Shown piece after piece: positions 6,013 through 62,411 of a DNA stretch of 64,000 nt. Source of the DNA: a virus. Made by a program: the position numbers and the translations under genes. Every line of letters begins with the position of its first letter. The first letter of the stretch is position 1. The stretch covers positions 15,267 through 79,266 of the IMG/VR virus record IMGVR_UViG_3300035703_000054; one strand, written 5' to 3'. The notes under the pieces were generated by a model. That model was not told the origin of the DNA and searched no databases. It worked only from the letters and a program-made list of their open reading frames with translations.

Positions 6013-8247
6013 ATGGCGGCTGATACTCTGGGCGTTCGTCAGCGGTTCACTGAGATCCTGGAAGCCTCTAGGACTCAAGATCGCTCGCGCCAAGCCGCCA
6101 CCATGGTTGTGCTTGGTCATATTCAGCAGATGACACTGCTGATGATTAAAAAAGGCTTGTTTTTCTACTGTGAACAAGATACATACAGAGCTAGAACGCA
6201 GTTCCTTCAGGATCTTATTGATTTAAATAAACTTGATATCCGTTTTCCGGCGATTATTCGTAATTTCCTTATCGACGGCTGTGGGCTTTTCTATTTTCGA
6301 CCAGACCCCAAACTTAAATATCAAATTTACTTTTTCACCAAAGATCAGTACCGGGTATATCACGATATTAACGGTAATATAGAAGAAGTTGTAATTATCT
6401 ACAGCTACAAGGTTCGCAACACGACACTAGGTCTACCTTCCGATAGTTATGGGATGAACGAACGGTATGTTCGTATTTCCATTACTAATGATCGTATTGA
6501 TGAATTCGAAGCTAATACAGAACTTAGTTTCGAGTTAGAGCCAGGGGCTGTCCTTACTCCTAAAAACAGCCGCCCCAATACTCTGGGGTTTATTCCAGCT
6601 GTTGAAGTTTTAAACAAACCAAACAGCAGCGGCACAGAGGGCGAAGGTGAGTTTGAGCCCTTCATGGAGCAAATTGTGCTTCATGATCAGATGATGCGCA
6701 ACATTGCCAAGAACATCGAGTTCTTTGGTAATCCGACGCTCATCAGTTCGCGTCCACGTAGTGATCTGGTCGAAGCTGCGGATGAAGGACGTACATTCCG
6801 ACCGACTATCAGTAGCCAAAGTGGTTTCGCTGGTCGGGACACACCGTCGACTCGGGTGTCGGAGCCTTTCGGTTCTGGCTCCACCCTGGGCGGCCTAAAA
6901 GTTCCTCGGGTTATTGCGAACATCGAACCCAATGACCGTGTGGGCTATATGACGCCTGACCCGGTTAACGGGGATATGAATCGTTACGCATTGTTGCTTC
7001 GTGAAGAAATTCGTACGGCACTAGGCGGTGTTGATGAGATTTCGATCTCAGCCGGTGCTACTGCAACAGAAATTAAAGGTTTGATGGGTCGCGCTCAAGC
7101 GACTGCTTTGCGGAAAAATAAAAGCTTTTTGACGTACGGTTTTTGTCGTTTGTTGGAAATGATCATCTTCCACCAGGAAGAGATCTTCCGTGAAAGCTTT
7201 ATTGCGGTAACGGGGATGAAAGCCCCTAAACCTCCTAAAGAACAAACAGCGGAAACTGTTGAGAAATATCAAATTTCTCAAAACAAGTTTGAAGCAAAAG
7301 TCGAAACAGAAATAAGGAAATCCTTAGAGAACAACGATGTTCCTTCCGGGGTTTACGGTCTGCCTCCTGACGGAAATCGTGATGTTACTTATAGATTCCA
7401 GGGCGATGTCTACGAAGATACGGCGTATGACATTAACCAGAAGTCAATCGTCGTACGAAACCTCCAAGAACTCGGGGTGGATAGCGTCGAAGCACTTAAA
7501 TATCTATTCCCCGATAAGACAGATGCTGAACGTGGTGAGATGTTGAAGGGATTCCCCTTCCGCATGATTCAACAAACGCAAGGCGCATTCCAGCAATTTT
7601 TAGTATTATTAAGTCAGATGTTGCAGACGCCACATCCCCTTGCGCCGAACCAACCCTTAGCGGCTGACCCTCGGCTAAACCTGACCGGCCTGTTATACAG
7701 GACGTTCGATCACCTTGCGCAAGAACTGACTTACTCGGGCAGCTATGAGCCAGCAGATCCCAGCTTCGATCCCGAGCCCGGTCTCCCCGGCGGTAGCGGC
7801 CCCTCAGGCAGCACCCTCGGCGGATATGGGCTCAACAGCCTACCCGCAGTGGGTAGCCAATACCCAGGGGGTGCCTTCGGTGGCTATGCCCCAAATGCAG
7901 TCGCCGGCAACACCGGTTACGGCCCCTTCTACCAGCAACCAGTACAACCAGTCTCCGTCAGCCTCCTCCCCGTCCAACCCGTGGGAAGCAGCGATGGGCA
8001 GCCTGGAACGGGTGGTTTCTCGGATCTCCCCGTCCCCCAGCCAGGCACAACAGTATCCTCAGTACCAAATGGTGCCGCAGGATACTCAACAGTACAGTCA
8101 GAATTTACAGGCCCAACCCTGGCTGTACCAAGCGCCTACGGATCAGCAGATCTCGTACAACAGCGCGTATACAATCCCGACTTCCTATCCGACTTCTACG
8201 GAAGCGCAACCCGCTCAACTAAGCGAGGAAACAAGCGCCGTAGTTAA
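6013..8247 (+). CDS. Probable portal protein with low-complexity C-terminal extension
   Basis: 744 aa, between terminase and scaffold/capsid genes; helical core with ISAGATATEIK segment; call based on position and size. Confidence 0.65.
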   Translation: MAADTLGVRQRFTEILEASRTQDRSRQAATMVVLGHIQQMTLLMIKKGLFFYCEQDTYRARTQFLQDLIDLNKLDIRFPAIIRNFLIDGCGLFYFRPDPKLKYQIYFFTKDQYRVYHDINGNIEEVVIIYSYKVRNTTLGLPSDSYGMNERYVRISITNDRIDEFEANTELSFELEPGAVLTPKNSRPNTLGFIPAVEVLNKPNSSGTEGEGEFEPFMEQIVLHDQMMRNIAKNIEFFGNPTLISSRPRSDLVEAADEGRTFRPTISSQSGFAGRDTPSTRVSEPFGSGSTLGGLKVPRVIANIEPNDRVGYMTPDPVNGDMNRYALLLREEIRTALGGVDEISISAGATATEIKGLMGRAQATALRKNKSFLTYGFCRLLEMIIFHQEEIFRESFIAVTGMKAPKPPKEQTAETVEKYQISQNKFEAKVETEIRKSLENNDVPSGVYGLPPDGNRDVTYRFQGDVYEDTAYDINQKSIVVRNLQELGVDSVEALKYLFPDKTDAERGEMLKGFPFRMIQQTQGAFQQFLVLLSQMLQTPHPLAPNQPLAADPRLNLTGLLYRTFDHLAQELTYSGSYEPADPSFDPEPGLPGGSGPSGSTLGGYGLNSLPAVGSQYPGGAFGGYAPNAVAGNTGYGPFYQQPVQPVSVSLLPVQPVGSSDGQPGTGGFSDLPVPQPGTTVSSVPNGAAGYSTVQSEFTGPTLAVPSAYGSADLVQQRVYNPDFLSDFYGSATRSTKRGNKRRS

Positions 8248-8662
8248 CCACTTCGGTATTGAAGCCCCTGCGATTCTGAATGAGTACGCCGTTACTCTGG
8301 AAGATACGCTAATTCAGCAGAACGAAAACATGGAAGCCCTCGCTCTGCGAGCCGGCGCCATGGAGCACATTCTGACTGATCCCGATCAGCTGGCTGACTA
8401 CACCAATCGTTTCTTCACGGAGGTCTACCCCGTGGACGACGAAATGGAGTATGGCTACGGGCAGCAGTACGAGCCTCAGTACGATCAGTTCCCTGCCGTT
8501 CCCGCTTCTACTACCGGCGGTGCCCGCGGCGCTGATCCTGAGTCCCAGTGGAATGGTTTCACTCAGACCATGGATCAAAACCCCGAGAACGCTTGGCGCT
8601 ATCTGTCTCAAATGAGTCCAGAAGCTCTGCGTAGCAAGCTGTTGTTCCTGGACAACGCTTGA
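7745..8662 (+). CDS. Probable capsid scaffolding protein
   Basis: Q/P/S/Y-rich N-terminus, acidic helical C-terminus, followed by a terminator; overlaps the portal ORF by 503 nt. Confidence 0.55.
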   Translation: MSQQIPASIPSPVSPAVAAPQAAPSADMGSTAYPQWVANTQGVPSVAMPQMQSPATPVTAPSTSNQYNQSPSASSPSNPWEAAMGSLERVVSRISPSPSQAQQYPQYQMVPQDTQQYSQNLQAQPWLYQAPTDQQISYNSAYTIPTSYPTSTEAQPAQLSEETSAVVNHFGIEAPAILNEYAVTLEDTLIQQNENMEALALRAGAMEHILTDPDQLADYTNRFFTEVYPVDDEMEYGYGQQYEPQYDQFPAVPASTTGGARGADPESQWNGFTQTMDQNPENAWRYLSQMSPEALRSKLLFLDNA

Positions 8663-8756: not shown

Positions 8757-9275
8757 ATGCGAAAGGATGAGGATGGTTTTATTTGTTTGGAGTGCGGTGT
8801 TAGTTTTTGTGATTTAAGACGTTCTACGAGATTAAGAAAATTTTGTTCGAAATCTTGCTCTTCTAGAAATCGTTGGAAACATTATCGTTCGGATATGCTG
8901 CAGTCTCTCAGTTCTAAAAAATCTCCGATATTTAAAGATGCTCAAATTTACTGTGAATTTTGCGGTGCTGAACAGATAAAGCGCTCTTCTAAACACAGAT
9001 GGTGTGATTTTTGTGTGCGGCCGGAATCTGTCAAATTTGATCGAGGTCTATTAATAAAGTATGGTATTTCATGGAGAGAATATGATTCTATGTTAAACAA
9101 ACAAAAGGGTAAGTGTCTCATTTGTCTACAAATCCCAGTTCGTTACAACGTAGATCATTGCCATAAGACCAATAAAGTCAGAGGGCTCCTCTGCTCTCGT
9201 TGCAACGGAGTGTTAGAATTTATCGAGGATTCTGAACGTCTTCAACGGGCGTTAAGGTACATTGGCTCCTTTTAA
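8757..9275 (+). CDS. Endonuclease VII-like (His-Me finger) homing endonuclease
   Basis: QKGKCLIC...VDHCHKTNKVRGLLCSRCN motif; N-terminal Cys clusters. Confidence 0.85.
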   Translation: MRKDEDGFICLECGVSFCDLRRSTRLRKFCSKSCSSRNRWKHYRSDMLQSLSSKKSPIFKDAQIYCEFCGAEQIKRSSKHRWCDFCVRPESVKFDRGLLIKYGISWREYDSMLNKQKGKCLICLQIPVRYNVDHCHKTNKVRGLLCSRCNGVLEFIEDSERLQRALRYIGSF

Positions 9276-9678: not shown

Positions 9679-10425
9679 ATGTATACGCCTATAAGTAATT
9701 GGCGGTACGATAGCGGCTTTCACAAAGTTCAGAGCGGTCCGAACCACGAGGGTTATATCGTGGTCAGCTCTGGAATTGTAGATACGGGAGCGGACATAGG
9801 TGTTGTTACTCCCGGAGCTCCGAATAGCGGCCTCTGGTACAACACAGATGATTGGCGGGCGGTACCAAGCGCTGTTTCCGGTTATTGGACCAATTATTCG
9901 GATGTTGACTACGCTCCTAGCGGCGCTTTAAGCAGTTACGTCGGGTATCGCCCGCTAGGTGTTTCGACGATCGCTAATGCAAAAGTTTCTACGTCTTATG
10001 GACCTCAATTTGGGTTGAGGACCACTGGGCAATCTACGTATTTCAACGGTGTTGCACCGGCATCTCAAGCGTACACGCCATACAACACTCCAGATGAAAA
10101 CACGGCAGCTCAGGGGTATACCGGAGGCGGTGTAACTCATGGTCGGTATGAGGGAGGCATTTTAACGAATCCGACTAACGACACCTCAGGATCCCGTGCC
10201 GCGTGGATCTATAACCCCCCTGTTTACTGCAAAACCTACACTGAAACGGTGCGCAGTACGGCTCCTGGTTTGATGTCCACGGCTCTTCGGTACATATACC
10301 GCGGTAAAGCCGGAACGTATGTCTCCAACTTCGCGGCCATTTATCACCAGCTGCCCGAAGGTGTTAGGTCGATGGTGCGCACGTATTCGCCTACTGTTAA
10401 TTCCAGCAACCAAAAATCGATTTGA
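9679..10425 (+). CDS. Hypothetical virion-associated protein (S/G/T/Y-rich)
   Basis: ORF directly upstream of the capsid gene. Confidence 0.6.
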   Translation: MYTPISNWRYDSGFHKVQSGPNHEGYIVVSSGIVDTGADIGVVTPGAPNSGLWYNTDDWRAVPSAVSGYWTNYSDVDYAPSGALSSYVGYRPLGVSTIANAKVSTSYGPQFGLRTTGQSTYFNGVAPASQAYTPYNTPDENTAAQGYTGGGVTHGRYEGGILTNPTNDTSGSRAAWIYNPPVYCKTYTETVRSTAPGLMSTALRYIYRGKAGTYVSNFAAIYHQLPEGVRSMVRTYSPTVNSSNQKSI

Positions 10426-10506
10426 CCGCTAAAAATGCGACAAGCTGGTTTTGTTCAGCTTGTTTTCTAGTTAAATTAAGTATGTAGTTCTTCGGAGGTT
10501 GACGCT

Positions 10507-10613
10507 TTGTTCGTCGACAATGATTTTCCGAAGCTGCTCGGTGCAGAGCTCTACCGTCCGCATCCTGCGTACGTTGTAGAGATGGCTGCAGAGCCGGTTG
10601 TAGTGCACGACTT
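10507..10613 (+). CDS. Major capsid protein, exon 1
   Basis: GGAGG at 10494-10498, TTG start, MFVDNDFPKLLGAELYRPHPAYVVEMAAEPVVVHD-F; frame stops shortly after, joins exon 2 in frame. Confidence 0.8.
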
Positions 10614-11608
10614 GGACTCATGAGTCTAGAGTCCCTTTAGGTGAGAGCCTTTAGGTTAAACTCCGTGAATTGCTGGAAAGCCGGACCCGAAAGGGAGGCC
10701 AATCAGCAGCCAAGCCAATCAGAAATGGTTGGAAGGTTCAACGACTAACACTGCTCGAATGCTCTCTCGAAGCGACCGATCTTTTCTCAAGGGAGTTTGT
10801 GTGGGCGACGGATGCCTCAGGCATCAAGTCACATACCCAAACCTAGTGCTGTCGCACTCCAGGAAACAGTTTGAGTATCTCCGCTGGAAAGTGGGACGCT
10901 TAAATCGAATTTTTGGGATAAAACAGCCGATTAAGGAAAGAGACTTCACTAACCAAACAGGTACATTTCCTGGTTGTCAGTGGTGGTCTAATCAACAAGA
11001 GCTGCTTCTTCCTTTATATAAGGAGCTTTATCCGCACGGTGTGAAGGTGTTAACACCTTCGTTCTTGCGTGATATCGGTTTAGAGGGTTTAGCTGTCCTT
11101 TATATGGATGACGGAAACCTTCAACTCCGTAAGCGAGGTAGATCCACGCAAACCGGAGAACCTTATATCAGGGAGCGCATTGTAGAGTTGGCTTTATACG
11201 TTCCTTATGACACAGCTTTATTTGTGTCTGACTGGATCGAGAGCTTAACCGGAGCGTCATTGACTCCTCGTGAGCCGATGAAAGCGAAGAGTCCCAATAA
11301 ATGGAATCTTCGCGGTAACGGCACTCAAGCTCGTTTATTCGTAGAGGCTTTAAAACCATACGGATGCAAAGCCATGAGCTACAAATTCGACCTTCGCTAC
11401 GACGCTCGAACTAATCGAGGCAAGTCAAAGTGGAGCGAGGCTGACCGCAACAAATTTGTTGTAGAAGCCGATAAGGTGACACGAGTGCGGAGCACCCAAA
11501 CAGAGGTATTGCCTGCTGTGGGTGATGATATAGTCTACTCATCAACGTCCTTAAGTTGATGTTACGTGAGGATAAAGAGCCTCACGGTGCTTACTAAAGC
11601 ATTACAGG
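10614..11608 (+). mobile_element. Group I self-splicing intron (995 nt) carrying a homing endonuclease
   Basis: P1: exon GACUU pairs with GAGUC (10629-33) giving the U-G splice site; P AAUUGCUGGAAA 10668; Q AAUCAGCAGC 10701; P3 CUCCGU 10661/GCGGAG 11487; P7 GACUA 10743/UAGUC 11531; P8 CACCCA/UGGGUG; terminal G at 11608 (alternative 11611). Confidence 0.9.
10729..11559 (+). CDS. Intron-encoded double-motif LAGLIDADG homing endonuclease
   Basis: Motifs FLKGVCVGDGCL and GLAVLYMDDGNL; likely ATG at 10759; 3' end reads through intron P3'/P8/P7'/P9. Confidence 0.85.
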   Translation: MEGSTTNTARMLSRSDRSFLKGVCVGDGCLRHQVTYPNLVLSHSRKQFEYLRWKVGRLNRIFGIKQPIKERDFTNQTGTFPGCQWWSNQQELLLPLYKELYPHGVKVLTPSFLRDIGLEGLAVLYMDDGNLQLRKRGRSTQTGEPYIRERIVELALYVPYDTALFVSDWIESLTGASLTPREPMKAKSPNKWNLRGNGTQARLFVEALKPYGCKAMSYKFDLRYDARTNRGKSKWSEADRNKFVVEADKVTRVRSTQTEVLPAVGDDIVYSSTSLS

Positions 11609-12617
11609 CAGCAAACAACCAGGCCAGACCGTTCAGCTTGACCGTTATCGTTTCTGGGGCAACCCCGGCTCTAAGGAGTCTCGGGAGCGCACTGCTGAGC
11701 AGACCATCGGTACTGCCAACAGCCGGAATATCGTTAAGGACAAAGTGCTCGTGACCCTCCGCGAGTACACTGGTCCTGCTGACCCGAGTGATCCCACTCA
11801 GCCGAGCACCTTTAAAATTGCTCGCGAGACCCTGATCACCGCTCAGCGTCTGCTGCTGGACACCGGTAACCTCACCGCTTTCCACCAGTCCATCGGTAGC
11901 CTCACCCTGCTGGATGACTACCGCCGATGGCGCGACCGGGTGTTCATCAACGAACTCCTGAAAGCTGTCTCCAAGGGTCAAGCCTCTGATAGCCAAGGTG
12001 GTTATTACTACCCCGGCGATCTGGCTGTCGGTAGCCTCACCTATGCCAACGCCGAGCAAGCTAAGTTCGACGTTAAGGATGACCTGCTGCGCGTGGTGAA
12101 GAGCCTGCGTAAGCGGAACACTCCTACCTACCAGGATGGTTTCTATCGCTGCGTTTGCGATCCTACCTTCCTGATGCACCTGCGCCAGAACAGCGACTTC
12201 CGCGAAGTTGCTCGTTACCCCGGCAACGGTCAGATCAACCCCCTCATGTCCTCGATGCAGCCTAACGCTGCCATCTACATGGGTCAGGGCTTCGGTCAAG
12301 CCACCTTCGTGGCGGGCGAGCCGATTATGCCCACGGGTTTTGTGTTCGAAGGCGTTCGCTTCTTCGAATCCACTAACATGCCCTCTCAGAGCCAGACTGC
12401 CACCATCGGCGGCACGTCTAAGGCTTATGAAAGCGCAATCGGTATGTTCTTCGGTCCCCAGAGTGTTGGCGTCGGCATCGGCGGTAACAATGCTCAGGTT
12501 CTTCTGAATAACAACGACGATTTCAGCCGTTTCATCATGATGATTTGGAGCCTGTACGCAGGTTTCGAACTTCTGAACGCTGACTTCGCGACCATCGCCT
12601 ACTCCTTTAACGCTTGA
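11609..12617 (+). CDS. Major capsid protein, exon 2
   Basis: Frame open from 11610 (SKQPGQTVQLDRYRFWG...) into track ORF 11745..12617; strong C-ending codon bias; VRFFES and IWSLYAGFELLN capsid-like C-terminus; spliced product about 371 aa. Confidence 0.8.
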
Positions 12618-12631
12618 GGAGGTAACTAACG

Positions 12632-13507
12632 ATGGCCATCAACCCTAACCAGATCTCGGTTGCCAAGATTTATCCTGGTAACTACACCAACGTTCTTCGT
12701 TACTGGCACGAAGCGAAGTCCGTTGATTTCCTCAACGAAAACGGCACCAGCGAGACTCTCGCCAACCAACCCGTTGGCGGTCCTGTTGGCGTTATTTTCC
12801 GTCCCGGCTGGATTGCTCAGCAAGCTGTCGGTTACGTAGACCTGTCTTACCAGGCTCTGGGTTCCGTCAACCAGCTTGAGTATTACACCAAGCCTTACGG
12901 TTCCGGTCTGAACGGTGACAACGTCGCCTTCACCACCGGCAACGTGATCATCCCCTCTCCGGATTATCACAAGGACGTGCGTGCCGACATTGCTGACGGC
13001 ATCACTGTTCCTTCTGGTGCTTACGTGTACCGCGTGGGTCTCCGTATCGACGGCGGCGACGTGGTGTCCAGCGGTGTGGGCGGCGGTTCCGCTACCCCCA
13101 CCCTTGGTCTCGGTCCCGCACTGGGCGTCGGCCTCACCGCCACCCCTTCGGCCAGCGGTTTCTTCGCTACTGTTGTTGGTTCCAACAGCCGTATCGAGAA
13201 CGGTTCGTTCAACTCCAGCAACGCCTGGAATGACGCGAACATGCACGCCGTTACCTCCGCCACTACCTACAAGCTCTCCACCGTGGGCAACCTCGGCGGC
13301 GCAGCTGCTTCTGGTTTGGCTCAGGCTTCCGGTGTGTACGACCCCCGCGCCAAGACCGGCAAGCTGCTCGGCAAAGACAAAGCTCTGGCAATCTGCGAAG
13401 TTTGCTGGCTTGTTCCCGATGAGCCGCCCAAGCGTTCCGACGTGGCACTCCAACCCGCCGGTGTTGTCGAATCTTCGATCTACACCAGCACCTCTCCTTC
13501 GGCCTGA
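12632..13507 (+). CDS. Abundant virion protein (decoration/minor capsid candidate)
   Basis: GAGGAGG RBS, same codon bias as the capsid gene, followed by a terminator. Confidence 0.65.
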   Translation: MAINPNQISVAKIYPGNYTNVLRYWHEAKSVDFLNENGTSETLANQPVGGPVGVIFRPGWIAQQAVGYVDLSYQALGSVNQLEYYTKPYGSGLNGDNVAFTTGNVIIPSPDYHKDVRADIADGITVPSGAYVYRVGLRIDGGDVVSSGVGGGSATPTLGLGPALGVGLTATPSASGFFATVVGSNSRIENGSFNSSNAWNDANMHAVTSATTYKLSTVGNLGGAAASGLAQASGVYDPRAKTGKLLGKDKALAICEVCWLVPDEPPKRSDVALQPAGVVESSIYTSTSPSA

Positions 13508-14124: not shown

Positions 14125-14559
14125 ATGACTGTGACTCAGGTTAAAGAGTTTACGTACACTCCTAATGGTGTCAAGATCGAAGTCGTTAGCACGCATGACG
14201 ATGGCGAGTACATGATGGTGCGTTCTATTACTACCGGTAAAGTTTTCTTTGCGCATCGGAATCAAGTTATCGAAGAAGTGCGTGAAGCTGAACCCGAAGC
14301 TGCTCCTTCTAAACAACGGCGCGGACGTCAGTTAGTTAAACCTGAAGTGCCTGCATTTAATCGAGTCAACATCAACACAGCGCCTCCTCAGTTACTGACT
14401 CAGGTACTGAAAGGCGTGGGCATCAAAACAGCTACAGATATAAAAGAGTTGCAGCAGAGTATGCCTGGCGAACGTTTTACTAAGCTCGATCAGTTGAAGT
14501 CCATTAAAGGTATTAACTGGGATGAGGTTCTTGAGGATGGGAATGTGTATGTGGAATAA
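14125..14559 (+). CDS. Helix-hairpin-helix (ComEA-like) DNA-binding protein
   Basis: RVNINTA...LKGVGIKTA...FTKLDQLKSIKGI. Confidence 0.7.
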   Translation: MTVTQVKEFTYTPNGVKIEVVSTHDDGEYMMVRSITTGKVFFAHRNQVIEEVREAEPEAAPSKQRRGRQLVKPEVPAFNRVNINTAPPQLLTQVLKGVGIKTATDIKELQQSMPGERFTKLDQLKSIKGINWDEVLEDGNVYVE

Positions 14560-15076
14560 AGTTTAAATACGCAAATTCGCCGAAATACTTAAGAGCCGCT
14601 TCGTTATATGCGATAGCGGCTTTTTCTTTTGTATCGAATCTCCCTAAGTTTATTATTTTACCGTCAACGTGTATGTGTGTTTTCCATTTTTGTCTATTTT
14701 TATCCCAGCAAACTCCTTTATAACCGGACGTATTATTTTTCTGTATTTTTTTATTTCTTTGATTTTGGTTGACCGTCGCTAATCTCAAATTTACGGCTTT
14801 ATTGTCTGTCGAATTTCTATTCGCGTGGTCTACATCAAGATGCTCGGGATCTTTGCCGGAATTTAAAAAGAAAATAACTCTAGAGTTTAAATAAAGAATA
14901 TTTCTGAATCTAACACTGTAGTTTTCGCGATTTCGATCTGAGACTTTCCATTTACACCCTGCTTCATCCCCCATTTTTGCTCTACCATTTACAGTTCTTA
15001 TCCAACGTAATCCGGTTTTCGAAGACGGATCTACCTGAAGGTATTCACCTATATCTTCCGGTATTCCGTGTCTCAT
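14513..15076 (-). CDS. HNH homing endonuclease with AP2 domain
   Basis: VDHANRNSTDNKAVNLRLATVNQNQRN + NTSGYKGVCWDK..KW...LGRFDTKEKAAIAYNEAA. Confidence 0.9.
   Translation of the reverse strand: MRHGIPEDIGEYLQVDPSSKTGLRWIRTVNGRAKMGDEAGCKWKVSDRNRENYSVRFRNILYLNSRVIFFLNSGKDPEHLDVDHANRNSTDNKAVNLRLATVNQNQRNKKIQKNNTSGYKGVCWDKNRQKWKTHIHVDGKIINLGRFDTKEKAAIAYNEAALKYFGEFAYLNFIPHTHSHPQEPHPS
14594..14630 (+). terminator. Intrinsic terminator embedded antisense in the HNH-AP2 gene
   Basis: AGCCGCT...AGCGGCT stem with inner TCGT/GCGA pairing, then TTTTCTTTT. Confidence 0.6.
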
Positions 15077-60741: not shown

Positions 60742-60921
60742 TCAGCGTTTTAGATAGACGGCGACGCTATTGGGGTTTGCGATCTGATTCATCTGCATGA
60801 ATACGTACTTAGCGTCACGTGGGTTACGAGCTTCTACAGACCCGCTGAATCTCCACTCTTTCCGATGAGCCTTCGAGAAGACATCGAATGTTTGCAGCTT
60901 GGTTTCACCGGGGTTTGGCAT
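60742..60921 (-). CDS. Small hypothetical protein (59 aa)
   Basis: Manual translation MPNPGETKLQTFDVFSK...VAVYLKR. Confidence 0.5.
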   Translation of the reverse strand: MPNPGETKLQTFDVFSKAHRKEWRFSGSVEARNPRDAKYVFMQMNQIANPNSVAVYLKR

Positions 60922-61102
60922 CAGCGCTCGTTTTGGTCTTTCCGAACTATAGCTACTCTTTTGTAGCCTCCGCTACTTTACGTAGTTGCTTGGGTTTGCT
61001 TGTGACTTCTGTACGTCTTCGTACATCAGTTCGGTTAACTTGCACTTAATAAAAAGTTTTTATTTAATTGAGCTACTTAACGTAATTTGCGCCTCCTATC
61101 AT

Positions 61103-61127
61103 AAAAAAAAACCCGAGCGAACTCGGG
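61103..61127 (-). terminator. Intrinsic terminator
   Basis: Minus strand CCCGAG-TTCG-CTCGGG followed by T9. Confidence 0.85.
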
Positions 61128-61146
61128 CTTTTCCTTTACCTGATGC

Positions 61147-61896
61147 TTAACTCTCCACTACAAGTTTCGTGATGTTGTAGTGTTTAATCCAAGTGACCAG
61201 TTTAATTGTTGCCTCGGCGGACGGTAGTCCTATGCAGCCACTAGTCCCTGACTCTCCGTTTAGTTTTCCCCAGCTCGGATCCTGATGGAAGCCCAAGGCT
61301 GATCGCCCCGTGGTAAACATCGGCGTAACAGGAACCCAGTAACCTCTACCTAATTCCGGGTCGTCGAAAGGAGCTGAGGCTACCCCTGTTCGATCAATTC
61401 TGTAAGTTCCTTTGGGTAGCGGAGATTTGTTTCCTGCTGTATTTCGATTAGCTGTCTGTCTATTAGCTCGGCCCGTCAATGCCGGCATAGTCTCTAGAAC
61501 TACGTTTTGATTGTTGACGAGTTCAAGCGACCAAATAGGATCTTTGGTTTCTTTAACTAATTTATCTGTCTTCTTCAGTATCAAAAACGCTTTTGTGCTT
61601 GTATTCGTCCGCGGCGGACTCACTCCAGGCCGTATCTGGATGGACGGCGTTGCCGATCCCGGTTCTTGAGGAACACCAGGCAACGGACTTGCATCTAAAG
61701 GCATCAAACCTTCAGGCAGTTGTGATGCTGCTGGACCTGACGTCTGCTCAAGCGGGGATACTTGAGCGTACATCATTTGCCTTAGATGTTCTTCTTGTGC
61801 GTCGTGATGCGCAATAAGCTGCGCACCTTGATGCAGCCCAACAGCAGTGACTACACCAGCCACTGTTCCAATGATCGCAAACATTCTGATTTTCAT
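61147..61896 (-). CDS. Membrane-anchored YkuD-like L,D-transpeptidase domain protein
   Basis: N-terminal TM; PLPKGTYRI, ALGFHQD...GTSGCIGL (His..Ser-Gly-Cys). Confidence 0.7.
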   Translation of the reverse strand: MKIRMFAIIGTVAGVVTAVGLHQGAQLIAHHDAQEEHLRQMMYAQVSPLEQTSGPAASQLPEGLMPLDASPLPGVPQEPGSATPSIQIRPGVSPPRTNTSTKAFLILKKTDKLVKETKDPIWSLELVNNQNVVLETMPALTGRANRQTANRNTAGNKSPLPKGTYRIDRTGVASAPFDDPELGRGYWVPVTPMFTTGRSALGFHQDPSWGKLNGESGTSGCIGLPSAEATIKLVTWIKHYNITKLVVES

Positions 61897-62411
61897 TAGA
61901 GATTACCTGGACCGACTTGAGGAGCCGGCGGGGGCGGAGGATCGAACGGAGCGTCCAAGTTACCTGGCCCAGTCGGCGCCCTCGGGGGCGTGGGAGAAAC
62001 CACAGGGGGAGGAGCTGACCGCTCGGGTTCCTTAGGTTGGGGAGCTGGTTGCTGCTCTTCGGGTTGGGGTTCCGATTCGCTGGGTTTATCTGATGTTTCT
62101 GTTGACTGTGTCGAAGGCTGAGTCTCTTGAGACGCGCCCTTCTTCCTCAGCCACTCAGCTCTTGCTGTTTCCTCTGGAGAAGGTTCAAGTCTGCCCTCTC
62201 GGTCGGGAGATGCACCCGGCACCAAGGCGGATACAACCATACCCAACAAGCTAACCCCGACGGATGCCGCCATGAAAGCAGCAACGCCGACGCCAACCCA
62301 GACTACTTTACGTAACATTGTTAACGACAAAGGTAGTCTGAGCGTTGCCAACCTACTAGGCCGTTGTACTCGACTTTGTACCAACGCATGCCGTCTCCTC
62401 CCCATACCCAA
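61896..62411 (-). CDS. Proline-rich membrane-anchored protein
   Basis: Hydrophobic VVWVGVGVAAF...LV, then P/E/Q-rich tail; true start probably MLRKVV. Confidence 0.6.
   Translation of the reverse strand: MGMGRRRHALVQSRVQRPSRLATLRLPLSLTMLRKVVWVGVGVAAFMAASVGVSLLGMVVSALVPGASPDREGRLEPSPEETARAEWLRKKGASQETQPSTQSTETSDKPSESEPQPEEQQPAPQPKEPERSAPPPVVSPTPPRAPTGPGNLDAPFDPPPPPAPQVGPGNL

Follow-up and report, generated by a model that had tools for sequence, protein, structure and literature searches.

A very probable mobile group I intron with a LAGLIDADG endonuclease gene in the HK97-fold capsid gene of an S-EIVl-like cyanophage

Phage introns mostly carry GIY-YIG, HNH, PD-(D/E)xK or EDxHD enzymes (PMC3984707), and some have been described in capsid genes. 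In mycobacteriophage LittleE, splicing of a capsid-gene intron was demonstrated by reverse transcription polymerase chain reaction and N-terminal protein sequencing, and the intron type was described as unclear, most likely group I (Pope et al. 2013, PMC3706429). A capsid intron of the lactococcal phage Tuc2009 is known here through its citation in PMC3706429, and in crAss-like phages of the delta and zeta groups the capsid genes contain group I introns that were identified mainly from endonuclease domains (Yutin et al. 2021, PMC7886860). Here we describe a split capsid gene in a 64,000-nucleotide (nt) stretch of viral DNA, hereafter the window, which covers bases 15267-79266 of the 82,205-bp IMG/VR record IMGVR_UViG_3300035703_000054. 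Positions 10614-11608 of the window very probably form a mobile group I intron with a LAGLIDADG endonuclease gene, lying inside the HK97-fold capsid gene of an S-EIVl-like cyanophage (coordinates are those of the window, and all features of the split gene and its intron are on the plus strand).

The record is a metagenome assembly, and its completeness was rated 100% by CheckV. When 50,697 phage records were compared, Synechococcus phage S-EIVl from a high-arctic lake was the sole relative of the source genome, and the CP12 gene, a typical cyanophage auxiliary gene, was present on related contigs. On these two grounds the source was treated as an uncultured S-EIVl-like freshwater cyanophage. 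The sequencing runs containing the sequence were mostly freshwater, drinking-water and aquatic metagenomes.

The split capsid gene

Exon 1 of the capsid gene, located at 10507-10613, opens with a TTG start codon that stands 8 nt downstream of a Shine-Dalgarno-like GGAGG (10494-10498) read from the sequence. It comprises 35 codons plus the TT (10612-10613) of the Phe36 codon, its nucleotides ending ...CAC GAC TT. The encoded peptide, (M)FVDNDFPKLLGAELYRPHPAYVVEMAAEPVVVHD, is identical to the N-terminus of P0004, an uninterrupted homologue of 371 amino acids (aa), and near that of the S-EIVl open reading frame (ORF). Homologous capsids start alike, with M-F-[VI]-D-N-D-F-P-K, and our reading agrees with a preliminary description of the locus, made from the sequence by eye of a model, which had named the same GGAGG, start codon and exon end. 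An in-frame TGA at 10621-10623, 8 nt inside the intron within the P1 loop, closes the exon-1 reading frame.

Exon 2 (11609-12617) starts with the last base of the Phe36 codon, ends with a TGA stop and encodes residues 36-371. Joining 10613 to 11609 gives 107 + 1006 nt, equal to 371 codons, and reads GAC TTC AGC AAA CAA (D-F-S-K-Q), the predicted spliced junction being ...CACGACTT|CAGCAAAC... and the junction-spanning peptide VVVHDFSKQPGQTVQLDR. Uninterrupted metagenomic homologues of 90-96% identity (P0004-P0007) are also 371 aa long, carry the junction peptide ...VVVHDFSKQPGQTVQLDRY..., and match exons 1 and 2 from end to end, with 96% identity between exon 2 and P0004. In S-EIVl the gene is a single uninterrupted ORF of 383 aa (L001:4000-5151), starting MFIDTDFPKILGAELYRPHPAYICEMAVEPVVVHDFTRQPGQTVQLDRY and reading ...VVVHDFTRQPGQ.... 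The uninterrupted homologues, from S-EIVl and 80 metagenomic contigs, read ...VVVHDFSKQPGQ... or ...FTRQPGQ..., with exactly two residues (SK or TR) separating F and QPGQ in S-EIVl and in 80/80 intron-less IMG/VR loci. A blastn search with window 10400-12700 matched S-EIVl in two pieces, covering 1105 bases in S-EIVl versus 2079 in the query, which showed that the cultured phage is without the 995-nt insert.

Judged by the sequence of these uninterrupted homologues, the junction is 10613|11609 and the predicted product has 371 aa. The preliminary description had placed exon 2 at 11609 while allowing for a 370-aa product; alignment with the intron-less capsids chose 11608 over 11611 as the last intron base and excluded the 370-aa form. 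Three G residues, G11608, G11611 and G11599, all keep the frame with an exon 1 end at 10613, and the 3' splice site could on that count lie at G11611 (370 aa) or G11599 (374 aa). Splicing at 11611 would delete the Ser and splicing at 11599 would add three residues, but neither form occurs in the 80 intron-less loci or S-EIVl, and the ...CAGG directly before exon 2 is conserved in those relatives that share the P1-P2 type of the window (type A, see below). We consider either of these sites very unlikely.

The program-made ORF list contains a 290-aa ORF from GTG 11745, and this is what a gene caller would report, as had been foreseen in the preliminary description. In intron-bearing alleles, the 45 codons from 11609 to this GTG showed a nonsynonymous rate (dN) of 0-0.06 versus a synonymous rate (dS) of 0.07-2.1, and the remainder of exon 2 showed dN/dS of 0.02-0.13. 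Purifying selection thus acts on the 45 codons upstream of GTG 11745 in these alleles, and this constraint disposes of a capsid protein start at 11745. Homologous capsids that begin at this GTG and lack the exon 1 peptide had been named in the preliminary description as a finding that would speak against the split gene; the homologues instead carry the exon-1 peptide contiguously. Over the exons as a whole, with the stretch before the internal GTG counted in, dN/dS was 0.02-0.13, which indicates that the capsid gene is still in use.

Annotation of this gene is irregular in public records. The GenBank record of S-EIVl (KJ410740.1 60784-62010, equal to L001:3925-5151) is without a capsid gene annotation; it lists an antisense coding sequence, AHV82227, and a truncated 156-aa one, AHV82228, and the uninterrupted 383-aa capsid ORF is at 60859-62010. 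Public protein collections hold exon-chained calls of the capsid gene with odd internal deletions (P0008, P0009), and many database ORFs of 37-52 aa match capsid residues 1-38 only, being exon-1 fragments of intron-bearing contigs.

The identity of the capsid protein was examined by profile and structure comparison. Exon 2 alone matched the major head protein family phrog_1357 (9.2e-22) over profile positions 62-343 of 356, and the start of the match at position 62 indicates that exon 2 is without an N-terminal piece; Pfam gave no family match on the capsid exons. An AlphaFold2 model was built on P0004, the 96%-identical uninterrupted homologue, together with 37 relatives, and had a predicted local distance difference test score (pLDDT) of 82, with residues 2-14 modelled as a helix and residues 31-35 as a strand. 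The top 50 PDB matches listed for this model, every one with probability 1.0, were nearly all phage capsid proteins, among them those of the cyanophages P-SCSP1u, Pan3, A4 and Pam1 and of GP4, N4, T7 and HK97; the remaining listed matches were one gene-transfer-agent capsid and one encapsulin. By this model, the split gene is the HK97-fold major capsid gene, and the sole major capsid gene of the genome, with exon 1 encoding the predicted N-arm of the protein. The host gene had been named correctly in the preliminary description.

The same arrangement was found in other genomes. A search with the endonuclease protein identified 36 other IMG/VR contigs with an intron at the same site and the exon 1-intron-exon 2 layout, representing 22 distinct copies that were used for alignment and counts. 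As the record is a metagenome assembly, the split gene might be an assembly chimera, in which a phage contig was fused to some unrelated sequence with an intron. This is contradicted by the occurrence of the layout in those 36 contigs from many samples, two of which have a 100% identical intron, and in JGI and ENA contigs of more distant relatives. Furthermore, contigs from independent runs span the exon 1-intron boundary with 0-1 mismatches, showing that the boundary is real independently of the source assembly. The probability of a chimera is negligible.

The intron RNA and its endonuclease

The intron delimited by the intron-less homologues is 995 nt long, from G10614 to the terminal (omega) G at 11608. 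The Rfam family RF00028 matched 10608-11561 with 51.8 bits (gathering score 50, E 3e-10); it was the only family to reach its gathering score in the window, and the match is the single such site in the 82-kb genome. One relative, L038:1238-1621, is a natural deletion derivative of 384 nt in which intron positions 162-772, most of the ORF, are gone and the capsid exons are intact. This ORF-less intron scored 78.5 bits on RF00028 (E 1.4e-18), from which we conclude that the ribozyme core is complete. The Rfam alignment of the window misplaced the 3' strand of P3 (P3') and P8 owing to the ORF insert, and the register of L038 was used instead. GGAGUUU at 10793-10799, considered as the 3' strand of P3, was dropped; L038 is without that stretch and yet scores higher.

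The predicted structure begins with P1 (10609-10633), in which exon GACUU pairs with the guide GAGUC (10629-10633) and U10613-G10629 forms a wobble at the 5' splice site. In its intron part GGAC (10614-10617) pairs with GUCU (10624-10627), leaving A10628 bulged; the hexaloop is variable, being all that differs in L022-L025, and the guide is kept in type A relatives. P2 (10634-10655) is a hairpin with a GNRA (GAGA) tetraloop, taken from the fold of the ORF-less relative, and shows compensatory AU/GC changes at 10639-10650 and 10640-10649. The 5' half of the core (10661-10747), placed by Rfam alignments and pair counts in the 22 copies, is 75-80% identical to intron cores of Bacillus, Alteromonas and Staphylococcus phages. 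It contains the 5' strand of P3 (10661-10667, pairing with 11486-11492 in the L038 register), P4 (10671-10676 with 10703-10708), P5/P5a (10680-10699), P6/P6a (10709-10737) and the 5' strand of P7 (10743-10747, pairing with 11531-11535). In the 3' half (11486-11561, register from L038), P3' is followed by P8 (11493-11524), by the joining segment J8/7 together with the 3' strand of P7 (P7'; 11525-11535 in all), and by P9 (11540-11561). P9.1 (11565-11586) and P9.2 (11587-11602) come next, and the intron closes with UACAGG, whose last base is the terminal G (11608). With its ORF-bearing peripheral region between P7 and P3' and its P9.1 and P9.2, the layout looks like that of an IA intron.

Covariation was counted in a MAFFT alignment of the 22 distinct copies. 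P4, P5, P5a, P6 and P7 were invariant, and about 27 pairs in P1 (intron part), P2, P3, P6a, P8, P9, P9.1 and P9.2 showed two-sided changes with pairing kept, a count that leans slightly towards the structure since this was defined on the window. For example, the P9.1 variants are CGUGAGG/CCUCACG, CGCAAGG/CCUUGCG, CAUGAGG/CCUCAUG and CGUGAAG/CUUCACG. In 22/22 copies, the splice site that keeps the reading frame is preceded by a terminal G. The compensatory pattern is that of selection on a working RNA structure, and a decaying insertion would not give such a pattern. The group I identity is based on the RF00028 match, the score of L038 and the covariation, and the readable helices of the preliminary description were borne out by the same covariance-model and covariation checks.

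Compensatory changes all through the ribozyme also bear on whether the element could be a dead, non-splicing endonuclease insertion, leaving the phage with a 290-aa capsid from GTG 11745, a two-piece protein or a defective genome. The 290-aa GTG-start ORF does exist and is what a standard caller reports, but in intron-bearing alleles exon 1 and the codons before 11745 retain a conserved protein sequence, the exon 1 N-arm is present in all homologues, and CheckV rates the genome as complete. Together with the covariation, these observations make a dead insertion highly improbable.

The homing endonuclease gene occupies 10759-11559, encoding 266 aa from ATG 10759, or 276 aa if TTG 10729 is used. 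Most database relatives begin at the Met equivalent to 10759, and TTG 10729 falls within P6a. The ORF matched the Pfam family PF03161 (LAGLIDADG_2) with 47 bits against a cut-off of 25 (E 3.5e-12) and phrog_11023, annotated as 'homing endonuclease with LAGLIDADG motif', at 6.8e-11, in agreement with the enzyme type proposed beforehand. Across 22 relatives, D27 in the motif ...VGDG... is nearly invariant, and D127, D128 and G129 in ...YMDDGN... are invariant. The AlphaFold2 model of the endonuclease had an overall pLDDT of 80, with residues 11-220 above 84, and its best Foldseek matches were I-WcaI and I-SceI (probability 1.0, template modelling score 0.72-0.73, root-mean-square deviation 3.0-3.3 Å), in keeping with a pseudo-dimeric alpha-beta-beta-alpha-beta-beta-alpha fold. 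Further matches included numerous LAGLIDADG enzymes, the bI3 maturase and the bifunctional I-AniI, and searching the PDB by sequence retrieved nothing with E of 1 or below. In 20/22 distinct copies the ORF is intact, its dN/dS versus the window being 0.05-0.12, and the family comprises 36 clusters at 90% identity, all PF03161. The distant relatives looked up (48-65% identity) have the same place, in capsid genes of more distant relatives. On the evidence of its model, the protein is a double-motif, I-SceI-like monomeric LAGLIDADG enzyme with an intact gene.

The gene lies in a peripheral part of the intron, between P7 and P3', and the last ~75 nt of its ORF double as P3', P8, J8/7, P7' and half of P9. 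The C-terminal ~48 residues (229-276 counted from TTG 10729; window 11443-11559) are predicted to be disordered, with pLDDT below 50. Since this tail is encoded by the P3'/P8/P7'/P9 stretch, its sequence is probably dictated by the RNA core.

The deletion derivative L038, with its complete core (78.5 bits) and intact capsid exons, suggests that the ribozyme may be able to persist without the protein. It thereby speaks against the view that the intron is genuine but folds only with help, from its LAGLIDADG protein acting as a maturase or from a host factor, in which case purifying selection on the ORF would reflect a splicing role instead of, or besides, homing. The dN/dS of 0.05-0.12 is indeed low for a purely selfish endonuclease gene, bI3 maturase and bifunctional I-AniI are among the fold matches, and the overlap of the ORF with P3'-P9 ties the protein to the RNA sequence. 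Pure maturases, however, often lose their catalytic acidic residues, and both are retained here. Altogether a maturase or host-factor requirement appears unlikely.

Several points weigh against a mobile, self-splicing intron in the window. The Rfam score is just over the threshold (51.8 vs 50), a marginal value that we attribute to disturbance of the alignment by the 740-nt ORF insert. When the exon 2 start was checked against the guide region, no convincing P10 pairing was found. Self-splicing without a protein helper is assumed, and the activity of the endonuclease and its target site are predictions. As for RNA, metatranscriptome contigs cover the capsid exons and not the intron, and no spliced transcript of the window allele was found in the RNA-run contigs searched. 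A contig of run X19, which joins 10613 to 11610 with a T between, was considered as proof of splicing and rejected: it differs from the window at 12/314 bases (96% identical) and comes from a relative, and 13 IMG/VR contigs contain its junction in DNA that has no intron. The runs holding the intron that are labelled RNA-Seq are probably DNA, and no joints occur in them. The RNA-run contigs are uninformative, as samples of these kinds also contain alleles that are intron-less at the DNA level.

Splicing, cleavage and homing of the window intron are inferred from its sequence, and the process may be pictured as follows. The late transcript would contain exon 1, intron and exon 2. Ribosomes on exon 1 would halt at the TGA 8 nt into the intron, before the ribozyme core, leaving the RNA free to fold from P1 to P9.2, with the guide GAGUC on exon GACUU setting the U10613-G10629 wobble at the cleavage site. 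Free guanosine would attack after U10613, and the freed end of exon 1 would then attack after the terminal G11608, yielding the ligated message ...CAC GAC TTC AGC AAA... for the 371-aa capsid protein. The intron would also yield the monomeric two-motif endonuclease, which in a mixed infection of related phages should cleave the allele that lacks the intron, at the insertion site or close to it, and repair from the intron-bearing copy would spread the intron (homing).

Mobility, splice registers and gene neighbourhood

The capsid protein is encoded by at least 592 stretches, the best 80 of which are all uninterrupted. The intron is a minority allele, showing a presence/absence polymorphism at one site among related genomes. 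Pairwise identities of intron and exon 2 were weakly correlated (Spearman 0.25). The window intron body (P3 to the 3' end) shared 89% identity with copies from 83%-identical exons, and just 79-81% with copies from exons of 90-91% identity. The polymorphism and these comparisons suggest that the intron is probably still mobile.

Splice registers in the relatives were inferred from the reading frame, the rules of a U at -1 and a G at omega, and P1 pairing. Two P1-P2 types were found among the copies. Type A, comprising the window, L003, L004, L022-L025, L034 and L038, splices as TT|C AGC. In type B, which includes most other copies, the frame is kept only as TTC T|CA (or CG, CT), the site lies 2 nt downstream of that of type A with a different guide (UUCU/GGGAA), and an in-frame TAA stands at the place equivalent to TGA 10621-10623. 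The more distant L123 fits TTT|GCC, and L121 fits ACT|AAG. Homologous introns, related in core and endonuclease, thus seem to be spliced in four registers that fall within 5 nt, each with a matched P1 guide. At the intron-less loci, the Ser codon at the site is AGY in 52 and TCN in 28.

The two types seem to meet in the window. Its P1-P2 module (10614-10659) is of type A and common to L022-L025, whose bodies are 79-81% identical to its own, and its intron body (10660-11608) is 88-89% identical to the type B copies L005-L011. The window intron therefore looks chimeric, a type A P1-P2 module having been joined to a type-B-like body.

Additional introns were detected in this region. A second, ORF-less group I intron of ~330 nt (58.8 bits) is at L011:2538-2867 and also in L012, L014 and L015; it lies upstream of the endonuclease intron, with a 17-nt mini-exon (UGUUGUCCACGACUUCU) between them. 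Another ORF-less group I intron, at L121:3346-3555 (74.4 bits) and also in L122, lies ~36 nt downstream, after ...QLDR|Y. The region encoding the capsid N-terminus has at least three intron sites within ~60 nt.

We tentatively raise the possibility of an ongoing contest, in which changes of the capsid Ser/Thr/Ala codon would be set against an intron that swaps or re-evolves its P1-P2 guide and slides both splice sites. The codon changes (AGY, TCN, ACN, GCN) would let the capsid gene escape the endonuclease or the guide pairing. If true, and taken with the two further intron sites nearby, the capsid N-arm region of the S-EIVl-like lineage would be a natural system for intron retargeting.

The capsid gene lies downstream of a portal-like gene (6013-8247; phrog_20475 and phrog_64), within a structural block. 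A 305-aa ORF at 7745-8662 (+), rich in Q, P and S and without a family match, shares the final ~500 nt of the portal-like gene but is read in a different frame; if it is a real gene, it perhaps encodes a scaffold protein. The capsid module is flanked on both sides by likely free-standing homing-endonuclease-type genes, at 8757-9275 (+) and 14513-15076 (-). One has an Endonuclease VII domain (Pfam 1.9e-17) with the catalytic motif as reported for cyanophage F-CphI, and the other is an HNH_3 plus AP2 protein. A promoter scan of 10300-12800 found no sigma-70-like site, a consensus that cyanophage late promoters may not fit, and the scan thus gave no indication that the endonuclease gene has a promoter of its own.

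Significance and comparison with known introns

The element is not new in kind, as similar capsid-gene introns of phages are already known. No published cyanophage capsid-gene intron was found in the literature searched, the coverage of which was incomplete, and the present one may be the first to be reported from the capsid gene of a cyanophage and from the S-EIVl lineage. The rarity suggested in the preliminary description stands in that phage introns mostly carry GIY-YIG/HNH-type enzymes (PMC3984707), but was overstated, given the published capsid introns of LittleE, Tuc2009 and crAss-like phages.

Gene callers miss the true capsid gene in the S-EIVl-like lineage, and recognising the intron restores a complete HK97-fold capsid for a widespread freshwater cyanophage group. 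Production of the most abundant virion protein late in infection would then require efficient RNA splicing. The intron nuclease could also bias mixed infections between related cyanophages; the intron endonuclease of phage PhiPA3 was shown to bias the outcome of mixed infection (PMC11620839). The diverged copies, the ORF-less derivative, the several registers and the abundant intron-less targets provide material for studying the co-evolution of intron, enzyme and target, and L038 would be a useful minimal ribozyme for splicing work.

Among the known systems, LittleE, likewise a tailed phage, has its major capsid gene interrupted by an endonuclease-bearing intron, probably of group I (PMC3706429). 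In both cases exon 1 ends in U and the intron ends in G, a LAGLIDADG-related ORF is present, and only some group members carry the intron. However, the endonuclease gene of LittleE is on the opposite strand and encodes a 177-aa I-CreI-like protein with an HNH-like tail (gp14), whereas the window ORF is on the sense strand, encodes a predicted 266-aa two-motif I-SceI-like monomer, and overlaps the ribozyme core at its end. Host and phage lineage are unrelated, no sequence relationship between LittleE and the window was found, and the group I assignment comes here from a covariance-model match and covariation. In crAss-like phages several introns are possible in one gene and LAGLIDADG proteins are annotated as intron-encoded (PMC7886860); relatives of the window can likewise carry two introns in one capsid gene. 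The crAss-like phages and Tuc2009 differ from the window in lineage and host, and were compared with it by description.

Within cyanophages, group I introns are also known from psbA of S-PM2, with F-CphI as a free-standing enzyme, and from the DNA polymerase gene of Pf-WMP3, with I-PfoP3I (PMC6083498, PMC3428280), and in Pf-WMP3 the endonuclease is also intron-encoded. Unlike the capsid intron, they interrupt psbA and DNA polymerase genes, which are not virion structural genes, and their enzymes have Endonuclease VII-motif and HNH types instead of LAGLIDADG. The window enzyme resembles I-SceI and I-WcaI, from yeast mitochondrial rRNA introns, in belonging to PF03161 and having two LAGLIDADG motifs per chain, and differs from them in its low sequence identity (13-15%) and its extra C-terminal tail of ~48 residues.

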